A stretch of DNA of 38,845 nt from a virus (taxonomy: Duplodnaviria > Heunggongvirae > Uroviricota > Caudoviricetes). The translations under genes were made by a program, and so were the position numbers. The notes below the pieces were generated by a model, which worked only from the letters and a program-made list of their open reading frames with translations, searched no databases and was not told where the DNA came from. The stretch's first letter is position 1. Every line of letters begins with the position of its first letter. Shown here in pieces: positions 8,966 to 16,155 of this stretch. The DNA is taken from the IMG/VR virus record IMGVR_UViG_3300031712_000052, positions 94,666 to 133,510 of that record; one strand, written 5' to 3'.

Positions 8966-9036
8966 GCAGGTGTAGTTCAATGGCAGAACGTCAGTTTTCC
9001 AAGCTGATTACGAGAGTTCGATTCTCTTCACCTGCT
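8966..9036 (+). tRNA. tRNA-Gly(TCC)
   Basis: GCAGGTG/CACCTGC, loop TTTCCAA. Confidence 0.92.
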
Positions 9037-9144
9037 CAACTCCTGGTGGCTCCTGTTCTACTGATCCCTCCAGCTGTCTACATCAACACCAATCTAGAGC
9101 CCGGTGTAGATGGCTGCTTCAGTACGGGCAGGAGCCAGTAGCGT

Positions 9145-9217
9145 GCCGATGTAGTTCAGTTGGTAGAGCACCCCGTTGGTATCGGGGAGGTCGGGAGTTC
9201 GATCCTCCCCGTCGGCT
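9145..9217 (+). tRNA. tRNA-Thr(GGT)
   Basis: GCCGATG/CGTCGGC, loop TTGGTAT. Confidence 0.92.
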
Positions 9218-9237
9218 CAAAAGAAAGGATTTCAAAA

Positions 9238-9363
9238 ATGCTTCAGTACACTGGAAAGTTCGCTACCTGCCAGGTAATGATCGATGAGATAGAGGAGGCT
9301 ATAGCGGACACTGTAGAAATCGTGCATGTGGTAAAGCCTGTATACAACTTCAAGGCAGAGTGA
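9238..9363 (+). pseudogene. rtcB: internally deleted RtcB RNA ligase remnant (41 aa)
   Basis: MLQYTGKFATCQVMIDEIEE resembles an RtcB N-terminus; DTVEIVHVVKPVYNFKAE resembles an RtcB C-terminus; SD intact. Confidence 0.6.
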
Positions 9364-9425
9364 TTCCCTGGTCCAGCCACCTGCACGGTGGTGAGGGTAA
9401 GTTGCTGCGGAGCAGTCGCCAGGAG

Positions 9426-9983
9426 TTACGTCTTCTTGAAGACCAGTCCAGATCTAAGGTAGTGGTTGTACGGGTTCTCATTTTTCCGCGCCACTTCTCG
9501 AGTGATCATGGTCTTGGGATTGTCTAGCACGAACCCGGCAGCAGCAAAGAACCCTAACCAGTAGTCTTCGTTCCGGCAGTTCACATGATGGTACCCCTGC
9601 TGCCCAGGGAAGGCATGTGTGACCAGTACAAGTGGGGCGGATTGAAAGGCGGGAACAAGATTGGAGATGTATTGCTCCTCCACATGTTCCAGGAACTCAC
9701 AGGCCCACACTAGATCAAACTTCTGCTCAGGTGTCCACTTACCTTTGGTGAAGTCCCATTGAACGATGTCAGGGTCTTTCTGTGGCACACCTTCTAGACC
9801 CGCGACTTTGCATCCAAGTAAATCGCGGAAGTATTGAAGGGCTTGACCTTCTCCACACCCTACATCCAGCACAGACTTGACGCCTAGTTCTTCTACCAAC
9901 CATTTCCAGAGGTCAGGGTAGAAGGTAGCTTCATCACCACCAACTAGATAGCCACCAAGGTGGCCGGCTGCAACATAGTTCAT
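9426..9983 (-). CDS. class I SAM-dependent methyltransferase
   Basis: VLDVGCGEG, FDLVWACEFLEH. Confidence 0.82.
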   Translation of the reverse strand: MNYVAAGHLGGYLVGGDEATFYPDLWKWLVEELGVKSVLDVGCGEGQALQYFRDLLGCKVAGLEGVPQKDPDIVQWDFTKGKWTPEQKFDLVWACEFLEHVEEQYISNLVPAFQSAPLVLVTHAFPGQQGYHHVNCRNEDYWLGFFAAAGFVLDNPKTMITREVARKNENPYNHYLRSGLVFKKT

Positions 9984-10009
9984 GACTCGACCTTACCACA
10001 ACTTGACGT

Positions 10010-10080
10010 GCCAGGTGTTGACTTCTGGGAAGTCACTTCATTCGTAATGAAGCAAGGCGGTTCGATTCCGACTCCTGGCT
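10010..10080 (+). tRNA. tRNA-Thr(CGT), slightly degenerate
   Basis: GCCAGGT/TCCTGGC, loop TTCGTAA; mismatches at 7:66 and in T-stem. Confidence 0.75.
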
Positions 10081-10113
10081 CTATCTGGTACACTCTTCAT
10101 ATAGATTACGTGA

Positions 10114-10188
10114 TGCGGGATCGCCTAGTTCGGTCTAAGGCACATGGCTCATACCCATGCATCGGTGGTTCAAATCCATCTCCCGCTA
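10114..10188 (+). tRNA. tRNA-Met(CAT), initiator-like
   Basis: 1:72 mismatch (T-T), loop CTCATAC, T-loop TTCAAAT; only two terminal G-C pairs in anticodon stem. Confidence 0.8.
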
Positions 10189-10190
10189 CT

Positions 10191-10263
10191 GCCCACATAG
10201 CTCAGCTGGAAGAGCGCCTGATTTGTAATCAGGAGGCCACGTGTTCGATTCACGTTGTGGGCT
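10191..10263 (+). tRNA. tRNA-Thr(TGT)
   Basis: GCCCACA/TGTGGGC, loop TTTGTAA. Confidence 0.92.
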
Positions 10264-10267
10264 CAAA

Positions 10268-10849
10268 ATGATTTCATTTGAAGAGGTATTCAAGAAGCAC
10301 ACTGCCAAGATCAGGTACTTGGCTTTCCGCGTGTCGCGTGGTTTTGGTGGAGAACAGCAGCTTGATGAGCTGGCGGCAGCAGGTAACTTGGCGCTATGGA
10401 AGTGCTATCAAAGATTTGATTCAAAGCGTATGTCAGAATCCGACTTTTGGCAGTACGCACGCAGGCGTGTTACAGGATCTATGATCGATACTTTGCGAAG
10501 TCAGGGGTTCGTCAAAAGGCAGCAACAAAATCTGGATAAAAGCAACGCTCTAAATAGAGCACCATGGGCTGCCACACAACCGGTGTCCATTGACTCCATA
10601 AAGACGCTGCCATCTTTGTCGAATCCTCTCGAAGAGCTGATGTTCAAGTGTGATTGTAACTTTGCCAGGGAGTTGGTTTCTGAACTTCCGCCCAGACTTC
10701 AGTACGTAATCCGCATGTTCTATGTAGAGAACATGCCATTGGCGGAGATAGGAGATAATCTAGGAGTTTCTGATGCACGGATATGCCAGCTCAAGCTAGA
10801 GGCATTGGCTCTCATGCAGGAGTGGGCTAAGGAGAGACTATGGAGGTAG
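10268..10849 (+). CDS. RNA polymerase sigma-70 family factor (FliA/WhiG-like)
   Basis: Region 2 (YARRRVTGSMIDTLR) and region 4 HTH (LAEIGDNLGVSDARICQL); ATG 10268. Confidence 0.85.
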   Translation: MISFEEVFKKHTAKIRYLAFRVSRGFGGEQQLDELAAAGNLALWKCYQRFDSKRMSESDFWQYARRRVTGSMIDTLRSQGFVKRQQQNLDKSNALNRAPWAATQPVSIDSIKTLPSLSNPLEELMFKCDCNFARELVSELPPRLQYVIRMFYVENMPLAEIGDNLGVSDARICQLKLEALALMQEWAKERLWR

Positions 10850-10985
10850 CTGAGATCGTATGTCTGATGTGGGGCACCCTCAATGTAGGATTGCTGGTTC
10901 TCTTTGTTTGGGGAGAGATCAAAGCAGAAAGGTACTGGAACAAGATGGATAGAAGATTGTATGGCCTAGACTAAGTAGTATTCAT

Positions 10986-11058
10986 TGCTGGATGGGCTAA
11001 TTGGCAAGTCCGCCGCCTGTTACGCGGTACGATGTAAGTTCGAATCTTACTCCAGCAG
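10986..11058 (+). tRNA. tRNA-Asn(GTT)
   Basis: TGCTGGA/TCCAGCA, G73, loop CTGTTAC. Confidence 0.9.
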
Positions 11059-11176
11059 CTTGTGGATGCGTGTGGCATGATGCCACCAAGAGGTAACCGA
11101 CAAAGGTTAGATACCTGGGTTTGATCACCCTAGAGCTCCTCAATGATACGGTAAGAGTCCGTACGCCTCCAGTTAT

Positions 11177-11250
11177 GCGCCTGTACGTCAATTGGATAGA
11201 CTACTAGCCTTCTAAGCTGGTGGCTGGGGGTTCGAATCCCTCCAGGCGCG
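11177..11250 (+). tRNA. tRNA-Arg(TCT)
   Basis: GCGCCTG/CAGGCGC, loop CTTCTAA. Confidence 0.92.
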
Positions 11251-11256
11251 CATAAT

Positions 11257-11332
11257 GCCCACATAGCTCAATTGGATCAGAGCATACCCCTCCGAAGGGT
11301 AAGGCTTCCCAGTTCAAATCTGGGTGTGGGTA
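11257..11332 (+). tRNA. tRNA-Arg(CCG)
   Basis: GCCCACA/TGTGGGT, loop CTCCGAA. Confidence 0.9.
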
Positions 11333-11340
11333 CAGTAAAT

Positions 11341-11419
11341 GGCCTCGTCGTCTAATCCGGCTTAGGACACTGCCCTCTCACGGCAGGAATGCAGGGTTCA
11401 AATCCCTCCGAGGTCACCA
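11341..11419 (+). tRNA. tRNA-Glu(CTC)
   Basis: GGCCTCG/CGAGGTC, loop CTCTCAC, encoded CCA. Confidence 0.92.
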
Positions 11420-11420
11420 T

Positions 11421-11499
11421 GGCTCCATCGTCTAACTTGGTTTAGGACAACGGCCCTTCAAGCCGTGAATGTGGGGTTCAAATCCCCCTGGAGTCACCA
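11421..11499 (+). tRNA. tRNA-Glu(TTC)
   Basis: GGCTCCA/TGGAGTC, loop CCTTCAA (C33), encoded CCA. Confidence 0.9.
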
Positions 11500-11500
11500 C

Positions 11501-11574
11501 GCCCCTGTAAGTCTAATTGGAAAGGAACAGACGCTACGAACGTCTGGGTGGGGATTCGAATTCCTCCAGGGGCA
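11501..11574 (+). tRNA. tRNA-Arg(ACG)
   Basis: GCCCCTG/CAGGGGC, loop CTACGAA. Confidence 0.9.
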
Positions 11575-11578
11575 CTAA

Positions 11579-11649
11579 GCCAGCAATCCAAGTGGTTGGG
11601 ACGGACGCCTCATAAGCGTTTGGAGTGGGATCATACCCCGCTGCTGGCA
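11579..11649 (+). tRNA. tRNA-Met or Ile2 (CAT), atypical T-loop
   Basis: GCCAGCA/TGCTGGC, loop CTCATAA, T-loop ATCATAC. Confidence 0.75.
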
Positions 11650-11658
11650 CAATTTTAC

Positions 11659-11731
11659 GGGAGCGTCGTCTAGTGGCCAGGACGGTTGCCCTACAAGCAA
11701 CTCATCGAGAGTTCGAGTCTCTCCGCTCCCA
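11659..11731 (+). tRNA. tRNA-Val(TAC)
   Basis: GGGAGCG/CGCTCCC, loop CCTACAA (C33). Confidence 0.9.
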
Positions 11732-11766
11732 CTGTCTTTTCTGTACCGCCGAAATAAGGAGAGTGC

Positions 11767-12054
11767 ATGTACGAAACCATTCAAGATCGATTCAACGCAT
11801 TTCATGCTAGCAATCCTATTGTGTACAAGGAGTTGGTACGACTAGCAACAGATATGAAGAACAAGGGGCACAACAAAATAGGTATTAGGATGTTGTGGGA
11901 GGTTATGCGCTGGAACATTCTGATGAAGGTGGTAACTATTTCAGATGACTATAAGTTGAACGATCACTTCACCAGCAGATATGTTCGTTTGATTACAGCA
12001 AACGAACCACTCCTAAAGGATGTGTTTGAACTGCGTGAACTAAGGGCGCAGTAG
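11767..12054 (+). CDS. hypothetical protein
   Basis: 95 aa, SD AAGGAG. Confidence 0.65.
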   Translation: MYETIQDRFNAFHASNPIVYKELVRLATDMKNKGHNKIGIRMLWEVMRWNILMKVVTISDDYKLNDHFTSRYVRLITANEPLLKDVFELRELRAQ

Positions 12055-12093
12055 TTAGATTGGCTAAAGTCAGTCCAAAGGGCTGACCACAAT

Positions 12094-12166
12094 GGTCTCA
12101 TCGTTCAGCCAGGTAGGACATCTGATTGTCGATCAGAATACGCGGGTTCAAATCCCGCTGAGACCG
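12094..12166 (+). tRNA. tRNA-Asp(GTC)
   Basis: GGTCTCA/TGAGACC, G73, loop TTGTCGA. Confidence 0.92.
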
Positions 12167-12200
12167 CTTTGACTAGAGGTCACAAATACAACTGGAGGAA

Positions 12201-12581
12201 ATGATGGCTGTGAAAGACGCCTACTTTGGATTCGGAATTAGCCCGACAAGAGTAAAGCCAGTCCCGTGGGATAGAAACGATGTTGTTGGCGCACTACCAG
12301 GGTATGTCATGGAGACTGGTGGTCCTTGTGTGGCTAAATTATCTGTGGCTTGTGGGCCTGAAACTGGTAACTCTGCGGACACGGTATTGGAAATAGAGGA
12401 CTTAGGCAGTTTCCAGATGTTTGCTCATGTCACTGATAATGGGCATTCAGTAGGTCATGAAAAAGTACAGATCCGATTCAAAGGGGAGTGGGAACGTGCC
12501 ATGTTGAAGGCATTCTGCCAGCTAATCATTGATTTCATAGAAGAAGATGCTGAAGACGAGAAGAGGATAAGATCGTTATAG
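12201..12581 (+). CDS. hypothetical protein
   Basis: 126 aa, SD GGAGG. Confidence 0.65.
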   Translation: MMAVKDAYFGFGISPTRVKPVPWDRNDVVGALPGYVMETGGPCVAKLSVACGPETGNSADTVLEIEDLGSFQMFAHVTDNGHSVGHEKVQIRFKGEWERAMLKAFCQLIIDFIEEDAEDEKRIRSL

Positions 12582-12624
12582 GTTCGATCCCGCTGTAGCT
12601 TAATTGGATCAAAGCCTGCAGAGC

Positions 12625-12653
12625 TTGACGTGCTCTAACATGTGTTGTATGGT
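12625..12653 (+). promoter_or_regulatory. sigma70-type promoter, leaderless HNH transcript
   Basis: TTGACG-17 nt-TATGGT, ATG 6 nt downstream. Confidence 0.6.
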
Positions 12654-12659
12654 TGGTTC

Positions 12660-13133
12660 ATGCCGACTTGTGCAAAATGTGGTCGTAGGTTTGACAAGGT
12701 ACACAGACTTGGTAGGCCCGTACGAACAGGCAAACCTAGGAAGTACTGTGCATCTTGCAAACCTGTGGGTTTAACCATGCATAAAGAGACGCACGGGGAG
12801 TGTACCTGCACAGTGTGTGGTAGGCGATATACATACAACAGGAAGAAAGGACACACTAGATCGAAGTGCGGTACATGTTCATGCAATCAGAGACGCTTTG
12901 ATGTCAAGAAGCGGGCAGTGGCATATAAGGGTGGAAAGTGCAAGTTTTGTGGCTACAAGAGATGTATGAGGGCTCTGAAGTTCCACCACAAGGACCCAGC
13001 AAAGAAAGACTTCAGTATAGCAGGCAATCATTGCAGGGCATGGAGTGTTGTGGTTAAGGAGCTGGATAAGTGCGTTTTGGTATGCTCCAACTGCCATGAT
13101 GAGATACATGAAGGATTGATCAGCCTGGCATAG
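12660..13133 (+). CDS. HNH endonuclease with N-terminal Zn fingers
   Basis: CxxC pairs, LKFHHKDP, CVLVCSNCHDEIH; start chosen from promoter spacing. Confidence 0.8.
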   Translation: MPTCAKCGRRFDKVHRLGRPVRTGKPRKYCASCKPVGLTMHKETHGECTCTVCGRRYTYNRKKGHTRSKCGTCSCNQRRFDVKKRAVAYKGGKCKFCGYKRCMRALKFHHKDPAKKDFSIAGNHCRAWSVVVKELDKCVLVCSNCHDEIHEGLISLA

Positions 13134-13197
13134 CACAATTTGGTGGTGCAATGGCTCTATAAGCCGGAGGTTGAGTGTTCGAATCACTCTGCCAGGA
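13124..13197 (+). tRNA. tRNA-Ile(TAT)
   Basis: CCTGGCA/TGCCAGG, A73, loop TCTATAA (C33); overlaps HNH stop by 10 nt. Confidence 0.8.
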
Positions 13198-13261
13198 CTA
13201 TAAGCGGGAGACCCTGACAAGGCTTCGTGTCGGTTCGACTCCGACCGGCGGGACAACTTAT

Positions 13262-13344
13262 GGGGGAGTAGCAGAACTGGAACATGCTCTGGACTTAAAA
13301 TCCGGCGTCGAAAGGCACTGTGGGTTCGAATCCCATCTCCCCTA
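13262..13344 (+). tRNA. tRNA-Leu(TAA)
   Basis: GGGGGAG/CTCCCCT, loop CTTAAAA, long variable arm. Confidence 0.88.
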
Positions 13345-13349
13345 CTAAC

Positions 13350-13434
13350 GTGATCGTGGTGGAATTGGCATACACACTGGCTTGAGGTGCCAGGCCGAAA
13401 GGCATTGAGGGTTCGAGTCCCTTCGATCACACCA
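13350..13434 (+). tRNA. tRNA-Leu(GAG)
   Basis: GTGATCG/CGATCAC, loop TTGAGGT, long variable arm, CCA. Confidence 0.92.
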
Positions 13435-13435
13435 T

Positions 13436-13510
13436 GCGAGGGTAGTCCAATTGGCAGGAGACACATGCCTTAGGAGCATGCCAGTGTGGGTTCGAATCCC
13501 ATCCCTCGTA
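13436..13510 (+). tRNA. tRNA-Leu(TAG), short variable loop
   Basis: GCGAGGG/CCCTCGT, loop CTTAGGA. Confidence 0.88.
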
Positions 13511-13515
13511 CAAAT

Positions 13516-13592
13516 GCCCAGGTAGCCCAACGGAAGAGGCACAGCGTTCAGAACGCTGAAAGGTGTGAGTTCAAATCTCATTCTGGGTACCA
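13516..13592 (+). tRNA. tRNA-Leu(CAG), short variable loop
   Basis: GCCCAGG/TCTGGGT, loop TTCAGAA, CCA. Confidence 0.88.
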
Positions 13593-13605
13593 CGAAAGGA
13601 AGTTC

Positions 13606-14166
13606 ATGAAGGCATGTTCTCTATGCGGAAAGCGTAAAGAATACTCCGATTTTCCGATCAACAAGACTAGATCTGATGGATTTGGATACATATGTAAGGA
13701 GTGTCAGAGATCATATGCAAGGAAACACTACTATGCTAATAGACAGTACTACAGGGATAAGGCCAGTAAGTTGAATGGTGATCCTAGAGCGGTAGCAATG
13801 GCAAACGCACGTAGTCGTGCACATAGAAGTCGCCTAAGTGTGGCCCAGTTAATAGTACTGGACAGCAAGAAGAGTGATAGAAAACGCGGGAGGGAGAATA
13901 CACTAGAGTTAGAGCATGTGGAAGACTTGATCGCGCAAGGTTGTTCCTACTGTGGTGAAAGAAACATGAGGATGACTTTAGATCGTATTGACAACAATCT
14001 AGGGCATGTGCATGACAATGTCATAGCGGCATGTATCCGATGCAATTATTTACGAAGAGACATACCCTACTCCGCGTGGTTGATTTTGGTGCCGGCCATA
14101 CGGGAAGTAGTAAGACGTGGCTTGTTTGGTACATGGACTGGGAGGTGTGATAACACACGCAAGTAG
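13606..14166 (+). CDS. HNH-like endonuclease
   Basis: SD GAAAGGA; CxxC, YICKEC, CSYCG, TLDRIDNNLGH, CIRCN. Confidence 0.72.
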   Translation: MKACSLCGKRKEYSDFPINKTRSDGFGYICKECQRSYARKHYYANRQYYRDKASKLNGDPRAVAMANARSRAHRSRLSVAQLIVLDSKKSDRKRGRENTLELEHVEDLIAQGCSYCGERNMRMTLDRIDNNLGHVHDNVIAACIRCNYLRRDIPYSAWLILVPAIREVVRRGLFGTWTGRCDNTRK

Positions 14167-14171
14167 CTTAT

Positions 14172-14245
14172 GCCGGCATACCCCAATTGGAAGAGGGAAT
14201 AGGCCCAAACCCTATTAGTTGAGGATTCGAATTCCTCTGCCGGTA
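14172..14245 (+). tRNA. tRNA-Leu(CAA), short variable loop
   Basis: GCCGGCA/TGCCGGT, loop CCCAAAC (C33). Confidence 0.85.
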
Positions 14246-14259
14246 CAAATGGAGACATC

Positions 14260-14457
14260 ATGAACAACTGCAGAAGTGTTTTAGAGCTACTGAGATACGC
14301 TGAAGAGATGGTGATCCAAATATGTGAATTGCCACCCACCTTAGATGTGCAAGATGTGTCTGTGCAGATAGGCGGGGATGGGGTGACTGTATCGTACACA
14401 TGGAAGCCACCTACTCCAGTTGTCCGCCTGACGTTCGATATCTCGAGAGGCACTTGA
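14260..14457 (+). CDS. hypothetical protein
   Basis: 65 aa, SD GGAG. Confidence 0.45.
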   Translation: MNNCRSVLELLRYAEEMVIQICELPPTLDVQDVSVQIGGDGVTVSYTWKPPTPVVRLTFDISRGT

Positions 14458-14481
14458 CTTTACTAAACCTGTGCGTATCCT
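14454..14481 (+). promoter_or_regulatory. probable sigma70-type promoter
   Basis: TTGACT-16 nt-TATCCT, ATG 6 nt downstream at 14488. Confidence 0.45.
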
Positions 14482-14491
14482 AGACTCATGA

Positions 14492-14818
14492 TTTCGCGTC
14501 ATTAACACCGGCCCAATTACTCAGTACATCATTACTCGAGAAGACCTGCCGAGAGGCATACAAGCCGCCCAGGTCGCTCATGCAGCCGGTAGCGTTGGTA
14601 AACATCCTGCAGAGACACATGTTGTTGTCTTAGCTGCGAAGGATGAGTTCGATCTACTAGATTTGTCTACTGGACTAGTAGAGGCTGGTATAGAGCACAC
14701 AGTTGTGCGGGAGCCAGATCTGCCGTGGAATGGTCAGGCTATGGCGATAGGGTGTGGTTTGTTGAGAGACAGACGATCTATAAGAAAGGTGGTGTCGAAC
14801 CTGCCCCTACTCAAGTAG
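14492..14818 (+). CDS. peptidyl-tRNA hydrolase type 2-like protein, no in-frame ATG
   Basis: Manual translation: QYIITREDLPRGIQAAQVAHAAG...VVVLAAKDE...VVREPDLPWNGQAMAIG...SNLPLLK*; absent from ORF track. Confidence 0.72.
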   Translation, partial: FRVINTGPITQYIITREDLPRGIQAAQVAHAAGSVGKHPAETHVVVLAAKDEFDLLDLSTGLVEAGIEHTVVREPDLPWNGQAMAIGCGLLRDRRSIRKVVSNLPLLK

Positions 14819-14822
14819 TTAT

Positions 14823-14890
14823 GCGGCGGTCGTCTAAGATAGGTAGCCCTCGAAAGGGGTTGATGGTGGTATCAAATCCATCCTGCCGCA
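14823..14890 (+). tRNA. tRNA-Phe(GAA), atypical
   Basis: GCGGCGG/CTGCCGC, loop TCGAAAG (C33), shortened D-arm, irregular T-loop. Confidence 0.6.
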
Positions 14891-14895
14891 CTAAT

Positions 14896-14969
14896 GGGTC
14901 CGTGGCGCAATGATGGCGCACCAAGAGTAATGACCTTGGAGGTTGTTGGTTTGAGTCCAACCGGACCCA
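14896..14969 (+). tRNA. tRNA of undetermined identity, 9-nt anticodon loop
   Basis: GGGTCCG/CGGACCC, D-stem GCGC/GCGC, CCAAG-AGTAATGAC-CTTGG. Confidence 0.65.
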
Positions 14970-15008
14970 CAGATTTCCGATGGAGGTTAAACTAGCAAGG
15001 AGAGAATC

Positions 15009-15536
15009 ATGTCAGCTGCAACAATGGTCCTAGTACTGGATGCGGAATTCATGCCGTTGAGGATAGACCCTCTGCGGAGAGCATGGAAGAAGATCGTTCT
15101 AGGTAAGGTAGAGGTTATCCGTCACTCGCATGATCAAACTATTACAGTTTCAGGACGTGCGACACCTCTGCCTTCAGTAGTTAGGCTACTGAAGCACTTC
15201 AATCGGAACAGGATAAAGATCAAGTTCTCGAGATTGAATATATATGCCCGCGATGATTTCAGGTGTCAGTACTGTGGCGAGCAATTCATGACAGAGGACC
15301 TGACTTTCGACCACGTCTTTCCACAGAGTCGTGGCGGAAAGACAGAGTGGACGAACATTGTTTCGTGCTGTGTTCCGTGCAACCATGCCAAGGCCAACAG
15401 GACTCCTGAAGAGGCAGGCGTGCATCTGATAACGAAGCCGAGAAGGCCATACTTTGTACCAGTGACAGATGTACGTATGGACCTGAGGCACAGGCCGAAG
15501 GAATGGGACGACTACTGGTACGTCAGTTTGAAGTAG
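15009..15536 (+). CDS. HNH endonuclease
   Basis: RDDFRCQYCG, LTFDHVFPQSRGG, NIVSCCVPCNHAK. Confidence 0.88.
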   Translation: MSAATMVLVLDAEFMPLRIDPLRRAWKKIVLGKVEVIRHSHDQTITVSGRATPLPSVVRLLKHFNRNRIKIKFSRLNIYARDDFRCQYCGEQFMTEDLTFDHVFPQSRGGKTEWTNIVSCCVPCNHAKANRTPEEAGVHLITKPRRPYFVPVTDVRMDLRHRPKEWDDYWYVSLK

Positions 15537-15540
15537 GGCT

Positions 15541-15576
15541 AAAAAAGAGACTCCACGGGCTTTGGGCCCGTGGAGT
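15541..15576 (-). terminator. intrinsic terminator between convergent genes
   Basis: 11-bp stem 15550-15560/15566-15576 with A6 tract 5' (U-tract on minus strand). Confidence 0.65.
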
Positions 15577-15604
15577 ACTCTGCTTGTGCTTCTTTAGCCT
15601 ACCT

Positions 15605-15904
15605 CTACAGATGCCCGTCGTCTGGATGATCGAGTGGAATCAAGCTGCTAGAATCAAGTGGGGCCAAGATGTTGGAATCATCGGAGCCATCCGCTTCTTC
15701 AAGCTGCGTGTCATCTACTGGCTCTAGACATTCCTTCAAGGTTGCCGGAATCACCTTTCCATTCTGATCAACCCTTTCTGGTCTTGTGAAATTCCACAAC
15801 TCACCAGCTGGAGTTGTAACTGTCCAGATGCCCACAACTTCTCGTATGTGACATCCCTTACTCTCCAACTCGTCTCTAAGCACTTTTTTGATGTCCATGT
15901 TCAT
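15605..15904 (-). CDS. hypothetical protein
   Basis: 99 aa, coupled to upstream minus ORF. Confidence 0.55.
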   Translation of the reverse strand: MNMDIKKVLRDELESKGCHIREVVGIWTVTTPAGELWNFTRPERVDQNGKVIPATLKECLEPVDDTQLEEADGSDDSNILAPLDSSSLIPLDHPDDGHL

Positions 15905-16155
15905 GCCCTCGCTGCAGTCCTATCCACACGGTACAGGTGGGGCAGGAGTGCTTCTAGACTCCGAATGTTGTTGAGTGCTTTGGTCAGACTCTCCCTTCGT
16001 TTACCCTCACTTCCTGTGGCGGCCTCATTCAGGTGTTTCCTGGTGATAGGCACCAGCTTGTGATCAGGGGTTCTAATGGTTTCGAACAGCCTGAACTTGT
16101 CCTCCGCGTCTGATAGATCTATGGCAAGCTTTCTGATCAAATCTGGTTCTGGCAT
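15901..16155 (-). CDS. hypothetical protein
   Basis: 84 aa, SD GGAGG on minus strand. Confidence 0.55.
   Translation of the reverse strand: MPEPDLIRKLAIDLSDAEDKFRLFETIRTPDHKLVPITRKHLNEAATGSEGKRRESLTKALNNIRSLEALLPHLYRVDRTAARA

Follow-up and report, generated by a model that had tools for sequence, protein, structure and literature searches.

A Putative HNH Homing Endonuclease Gene and a Passenger tRNA-Ile Lie Inside a Split Phage tRNA Gene

Introduction

Group I introns with homing endonuclease ORFs occupy the anticodon loops of bacterial tRNA-Leu, tRNA-fMet, tRNA-Arg, and tRNA-Ile genes, and in fungal mitochondria the mobile endonuclease ORFs known as mORFs insert into a gene and bring with them a replacement for the part that they displace. 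In phages, the tRNA region of T5 holds genes for the HNH nickases F-TflI/II/IV. The GIY-YIG homing endonuclease SegB of T4 and T6 is encoded by a free-standing gene in a tRNA gene cluster, cuts within tRNA genes, and is co-inherited with the neighboring tRNA genes, and genes of the SegB type are statistically associated with tRNAs across phages (PMC2330249, PMC13096335). In the Lak megaphages, "enigmatic" tRNA introns have been described, with a tRNA possibly encoded in one of them (Devoto et al. 2019, PMC6784885); these inserts are short, and they were read as introns from the existence of alleles with and without the insert (PMC6784885).

Here we analyze a locus in the final part of a 133.5-kb phage record from IMG/VR, a stretch of 38.8 kb that we refer to as a whole as the window, in which a promoter-like site, a predicted HNH endonuclease gene, and a complete tRNA gene are enclosed by the two parts of another tRNA gene. 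Free-standing homing endonuclease genes are already known from phage tRNA arrays; here such a gene is fused to a passenger tRNA and nested in a tRNA gene that most likely had the same anticodon. Unless a locus number is given, coordinates are positions of the window, and all features described for the split gene and its insert lie on the plus strand.

Results

The Locus and Its Split tRNA Gene

The phage genome contains 37 tRNA genes, of which 33 fall inside the window. The array extends upstream of the window, where genes for tRNA-Tyr(GTA), tRNA-Lys(UUU), tRNA-Lys(CUU), and tRNA-Phe(GAA) occupy C1:94293-94675, starting 373 nt before the window does, and the last of these genes reaches into the window as far as base 10. 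Because the array continues in this way, the seeming gaps in the tRNA types of the window are edge effects. Elsewhere in the same array, an EndoVII/HNH-like gene (13606-14166; phrog_1035, E 2e-24) lies with tRNA-Leu(CAG) and tRNA-Leu(CAA) on either side, and a Pfam HNH gene (15009-15536) follows tRNA-Ile(AAT). The protein of the 126-aa ORF upstream of the split gene matched no homolog but itself among 5.8 billion proteins, nor any in IMG/VR, and the homologs of a neighboring 95-aa protein sit in non-syntenic phages. A 5-bp hairpin directly 5' of the split gene (12570-12588) overlaps the 126-aa ORF at its stop codon, and the 3' side of the hairpin resembles a T-loop motif.

The two outer segments of the locus, 12589-12620 and 13198-13253, are parts of one tRNA gene, which we call X, and are separated by ~577 nt. 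The 5' part consists of a 7-nt acceptor strand (12589-12595), U8 and A9 (12596-12597), a D-arm with a 4-bp stem and G18 G19 (12598-12615), the 5' strand of an anticodon stem, CCTGC (12615-12619), and the first base of the loop (12620). The 3' part continues with further loop bases (13198-13203), the 3' stem strand GCGGG (13204-13208), to which the strand at 12615-12619 is complementary, a variable region of 20 nt (13209-13228), a T-arm with a perfect 5-bp stem and a canonical T-loop (13229-13245), the second 7-nt acceptor strand (13246-13252), and A73 (13253). The acceptor strands pair at all seven positions, through six Watson-Crick pairs and one G-U pair. When the 133.5-kb genome was scanned for orphan T-arms in the tRNA array, only that of X and one in the Y-RNA region (window position 1258) were found, and a scan of positions 9001-16000 located the complement of the T-arm-side acceptor strand of X, together with a true D-arm, at 12589. 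It is because the acceptor complement and D-arm belonging to this lone orphan T-arm sit at 12589 that we assign the two parts to a single gene. Both parts retain every invariant tRNA base, which either a recent insertion or continued selection on a part would lead one to expect; exact copies of the halves were not found elsewhere in IMG/VR. The original prediction, made from the letters of the window, had described a 5' half and a 3' half with a 20-nt variable region, a perfect T-arm, and matching acceptor strands, and we find all of these at the same positions. The 3' half that it began at 13204 is real, and only its start is better moved to 13198 or 13199, so as to take in the loop.

Components of the Insert

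The segment between the two parts (12622-13198) is a cassette composed of a promoter, a leaderless HNH gene, and a tRNA-Ile(UAU) gene, with limits set where homology to the related locus L015, described below, begins and ends. The sigma-70-like promoter, TTGACG-17 nt-TATGGT (12625-12653), is the sole promoter-like site within 12000-13700. It ends 6 nt upstream of the ATG of the HNH gene (12660-13133; 157 aa), so that the HNH mRNA would be leaderless. In the two other loci that carry the same block, L015 and L107, the -35 box and the 17-nt spacing are conserved and a Shine-Dalgarno sequence is absent, and the ATG lies 5-6 nt past the -10 box in all three copies. The product of the gene is predicted to be an HNH endonuclease, since a profile search matched it to phrog_2255 at E 1e-28 and to five further PHROGs annotated as HNH endonuclease (the comparison with Pfam HNH was below threshold), and an alignment of ten homologs contains the invariant residues H109, H110, N144, H146, and H150 together with zinc-binding Cys columns.

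The stop codon of the HNH gene, TAG at 13131-13133, forms bases 8-10 of the tRNA gene that follows, named Y (13124-13197). This tRNA is complete, is called Ile(tat) by ARAGORN, and scores 55.6 bits against the Rfam tRNA model, for which the gathering threshold is 29 bits. Its anticodon loop is unusual in having a C at position 33, and the register of the loop is fixed by a compensatory anticodon-stem change between the window and L015 copies. The promoter, the leaderless HNH gene, and the complete inner tRNA-Ile(TAT) had each been named in the original prediction and are confirmed by these data. Two additional structures were considered and discarded: an anticodon arm at 12621-12637, with a perfect 5-bp stem and the -35 box in its loop, loses its stem in L015 and L107, and the left junction read as a stranded copy of the 5' end of Y, with 8-11 matching bases and a gap, was too weak to use.

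Recurrence of the Cassette

The closest homolog of the HNH protein, at 63% identity, is encoded on a soil contig (L015), on which the whole unit reappears with an identical -35 box, the 17-nt spacer, a leaderless ATG, and an overlapping tRNA-Ile(UAU) with C33 in its loop. The flanks of this copy differ from those in the window, as it follows a tRNA-Arg gene and precedes an RNA ligase gene, and in a pairwise alignment the homology between the two loci runs from 12622 to 13198, with none beyond. The promoter block, HNH gene, and tRNA-Ile(UAU) occur a third time in an IMG/VR phage locus (L107), where they are also nested in a split tRNA; ARAGORN calls the two parts of this tRNA Ile(gat) when they are joined. 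The split point there is directly after the D-arm, so that the whole anticodon arm is in the 3' part. The L107 contig was the single true match among the 21 returned by a search of IMG/VR with the promoter block, the other 20 being chance matches in coding DNA. Homologs of the HNH protein with 42-57% identity, in L019/L020, L021, L026, and L110, have a tRNA-Ile(UAU) immediately downstream as well, and in L015, L019, L021, and L026 the cassette is found without any flanking tRNA halves.

The cassette is thus present in three distinct flanks, those of the window, L015, and L107, and because the promoter, HNH gene, and tRNA-Ile(UAU) are conserved as a block in unrelated flanks, we regard them as a conserved and, to judge from these alignments, mobile unit. 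Together with the recurrence of nested arrangements in L107 and in L023 (below), this supports the original proposal that a mobile HNH cassette has disrupted one tRNA gene while bringing another. This phage is represented by ten other contigs, all identical, and no polymorphism for the presence or absence of the cassette was found within the phage. The original prediction had looked to related phages for the uninterrupted allele; the viral and metagenome contigs searched with the predicted sequence yielded no allele of X without the cassette, and INPHARED contained no close relatives of the phage. Because the cassette-free allele was not found and the other contigs of the phage are identical, the insertion event is inferred rather than observed.

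The HNH Family and Other Nested Loci

A survey of the family in metagenome and viral contigs added 160 loci, and the family tree comprises 118 sequences. About half of the family members have a tRNA that begins no more than 60 nt from the HNH stop codon, and the type of this downstream tRNA (Gln, Glu, Asn, Ile, or Lys) tracks the HNH clade. All six distinct HNHs that have a tRNA-Ile(UAU) directly downstream (those of the window, L015, L020, L026, L107, and L110) belong to one subgroup of 12 members in the 118-sequence tree, within which the window, L015, and L016 proteins cluster with 99% support. The overlap seen in the window, with the HNH stop codon serving as tRNA bases 8-10, recurs in nine distinct family members; the loci of this -9 overlap class, in which the gene ends at U8-A9-G10 of the next tRNA, are L003, L021, L023, L048, L055, L060, L085, L101, and L102.

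Locus L023 contains two tandem nests, each with the order 5' half, HNH gene, complete tRNA, 3' half (516-1259 and 1463-1985). In the first, an HNH gene of a different family and a tRNA-Gln(CUG) lie inside a Gln-like tRNA, the anticodon loop of which has been lost, so split-tRNA shells can be dead. The second is an independent nest, and a stem straddling the insert is present there also. Three other members of the HNH family are encoded inside Rfam group I introns that split tRNA-Asn(GUU) genes (L074:1323-2012, L081:202-829, and L087:1431-2076). These introns are inserted between anticodon bases 35 and 36, and an ORF-less intron occupies the same site in L102 (762-1043); the four loci score 76-89 bits in Rfam. 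A tRNA-Asn(GUU) intron pattern that looks alike by eye is present at L096:67-641.

Several other arrangements were noted among the surveyed loci. Gaps of 255-257 nt separate matching tRNA halves in L036, L045, L115, L118, L122, L143, L145, L153, L157, L158, and L170. At L103:1958-2528, an HNH gene (46% identity) lies between an acceptor strand with a D-arm and a T-arm with the matching acceptor strand; the anticodon arm and an inner tRNA are absent, and the whole resembles a tRNA-shaped shell enclosing an mRNA. A tRNA-like gene at L002:3545-3650, downstream of an HNH homolog, has good acceptor, D, and T arms, but ~35 nt replace its 7-nt anticodon loop, and ARAGORN gave no call for it.

Identity of X and Possible Routes to Its Restoration

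Exact removal of the cassette (12620|13198 or 12621|13199) allows 12615-12619 to pair with 13204-13208 in a 5-bp stem closing a 7-nt loop with the anticodon UAU, and ARAGORN reports the product as a tRNA-Ile(tat) of 89 nt; a stem straddling the insert in this manner is expected by chance at ~2% of random junctions. The original prediction had also noticed a motif shared by the inner tRNA and the orphan half, and this is a 13-nt motif, found at 13157 in the loop region of Y and at 13198-13210 in X, with 12 of the 13 bases matching and one mismatch. The loop and 3' stem strand of X also resemble those of the phage's tRNA-Ile(GAU). Given the restored stem and UAU loop, the ~2% chance expectation, and the resemblance to the loop of Y, we favor a UAU-type X: a resident tRNA that was most likely of the Ile type, with the anticodon UAU and an unusually long variable region. 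The rebuilt molecule has its oddities, in that it lacks a base 26 (or else has a 3-bp D-stem) and that its 20-nt variable region is like a second anticodon arm, containing at 13209-13225 a hairpin with GAC in its loop. The possibility that 13209-13228 is a repeat from elsewhere was dropped, since the genome holds no other copy of this segment. The same hairpin, with a 5-bp stem and a canonical 7-nt loop, would be the true anticodon arm if the insertion had instead split a class I tRNA-Val(GAC) between its D-arm and anticodon arm (~12616|13209), in which case the 6-9 nt to the left and 10-11 nt to the right of the cassette would be filler or carried-over flank. The genome has only a Val(UAC), making Val(GAC) the expected missing isoacceptor, and in L107 a like cassette interrupts its tRNA just past the D-arm and leaves the whole anticodon arm to the 3' part. 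ARAGORN gives Ile(tat) for exact excision and tRNA-Val(gac), of 73-74 nt, for many of the other joins, and it is too permissive in this setting to choose between the two, calling something for 1510 of 4275 joins. A Val(GAC) gene would, however, have a variable loop of 3 nt and a stem with an A-C mismatch, and it offers no reason why 12615-12619 should be complementary to 13204-13208 or why 13198-13210 should match the loop region of Y at 12 of 13 bases; we consider this identity unlikely, if still a serious competitor. A Tyr-type X, raised in the original prediction along with the apparent lack of tRNA-Tyr in the window, does not survive the analysis. Rebuilding X gives the anticodon UAU, or GAC in the other register, and no paired register has a Tyr anticodon, the lone register with AUA leaving the stem unpaired; the missing tRNA-Tyr is an edge artifact, the (GTA) gene lying just upstream of the window start.

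Whichever tRNA X was, its two parts might in principle be rejoined in RNA, and the original prediction had proposed as one option an intron-like unit that restores a class II tRNA upon excision. This was a reasonable lead, as distant members of the HNH family sit in phage tRNA-Asn group I introns, Rfam-confirmed at 76-89 bits in L074, L081, and L087. A self-splicing group I or group II intron with an HNH ORF is nonetheless scarcely credible here. The suggested scan with intron models of Rfam gave no group I or group II match at E<=10 across 12100-13700, and RF00028 (group I), which finds nothing in this region at that threshold, scores 76-89 bits in L074, L081, L087, and L102. The non-coding content of the insert amounts to 38 nt of promoter and the 55.6-bit tRNA, which leaves no room for a ribozyme; the space after the ORF is 65 nt of true tRNA, whereas the intron-borne relatives have a ribozyme of 230-290 nt in that place. 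With no intron match at E<=10, a stand-alone ORF, and its own promoter-like site, the HNH gene appears to be free-standing and outside any self-splicing intron. A protein-based route would have RNase Z cut at the 3' end of Y, a second cut made, and an RNA ligase of phage or host rejoin a working X. Such a route would account for the resumption of X directly (0-1 nt) past the discriminator base of Y and for the undecayed state of both parts, and the Lak phage tRNA intron that is itself tRNA-like (PMC6784885) and the RNA ligase gene adjoining the L015 cassette speak for it as well. Viewed as a tRNA-shaped intron, the insert fits at its 3' end, at A73 of Y, and fails at its 5' end, where no register with the 3' strand of Y yields a tRNA. 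The 5' junction (12620/12621) carries no mark for RNase P; the sole long-range pairing, of 12615-12623 with the 3' end of Y, would direct a cut at 12614/12615, the product of which is not a tRNA; and if RNase P acted on Y, 500 nt of HNH mRNA would stay joined to the 5' part of X. In addition, L015, L019, L021, and L026 have the cassette without flanking halves, and the nested tRNA of L023:516-1259 cannot be rebuilt. Hence, lacking an intron signal, space for a ribozyme, and a processing determinant at the 5' junction, the intron-like option lacks support, and rejoining of the X parts at the RNA level is unsupported; we judge the enzymatic form of it to be quite improbable. Were it true, a bacterial-virus tRNA would have in this cassette an intron that depends on proteins and has no ribozyme, which would be a new splicing route in bacteria.

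Discussion

The reading that we prefer, to which we assign a probability of about 0.68, is that a mobile HNH cassette broke a resident UAU-type tRNA gene, X, and supplies a spare, Y, with X now dead and no intron involved. The ~577-bp cassette would have interrupted X at the 5' edge of its anticodon loop. By analogy with SegB, the HNH endonuclease may cut tRNA genes of the type with which it travels, and repair of the resulting break may have copied the cassette into X. The gene would by now be inactive, with two parts that have not yet decayed, and Y would take over the decoding of AUA in its place. Judged from the sequence comparisons, the cassette most likely works by breaking a gene and bringing a spare, and not as an intron. 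Some observations stand against this reading, the oddities of the rebuilt X among them. In both the window and L023, X or its counterpart resumes 0-1 nt past the discriminator base of the inner tRNA, which in a purely DNA-level model must be a coincidence and which is how a 3' splice site defined by RNase Z would look, and the L107 tRNA is split after its D-arm, not in the loop.

The way in which the HNH gene ends within Y has a possible consequence for its expression, as processing of the tRNA 5' end by RNase P would strip the stop codon from the nuclease mRNA, and this could act as a built-in brake on a toxic enzyme. More broadly, one HNH family appears in three forms, residing in group I introns of tRNA genes, standing free with a passenger tRNA, or nested in a broken tRNA, and these forms connect intron-borne with free-standing homing elements. 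Loci of this kind suggest how selfish endonuclease genes may reshape phage tRNA arrays, and nested cassettes would explain orphan tRNA halves that annotation pipelines miss or mis-call.

Of the described systems, SegB resembles the window gene in that both are free-standing endonuclease genes within a phage tRNA array. Unlike SegB, the window nuclease is predicted to be an HNH enzyme with zinc ribbons, its gene is fused to one passenger tRNA that supplies the stop codon, and it has its own promoter and a leaderless start; it also sits inside a tRNA gene and not between genes. With the tRNA group I introns, as represented by L074, L081, and L087, the cassette shares the HNH family, a phage tRNA target, and insertion in or beside the anticodon loop, but it has no ribozyme, its host gene would not be restored by splicing, and it carries a spare tRNA. 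As in the Lak introns, a complete tRNA is nested in another phage tRNA gene, whereas the insert described here adds a promoter and an endonuclease gene, and an insert-free allele was not found. The logic of breaking a gene and carrying a substitute is that of the fungal mitochondrial mORFs, with the difference that this cassette carries a whole tRNA gene, not a gene end, and that its hosts are phages. The element is, in this company, a variant of a known phage habit and no new kind of intron.
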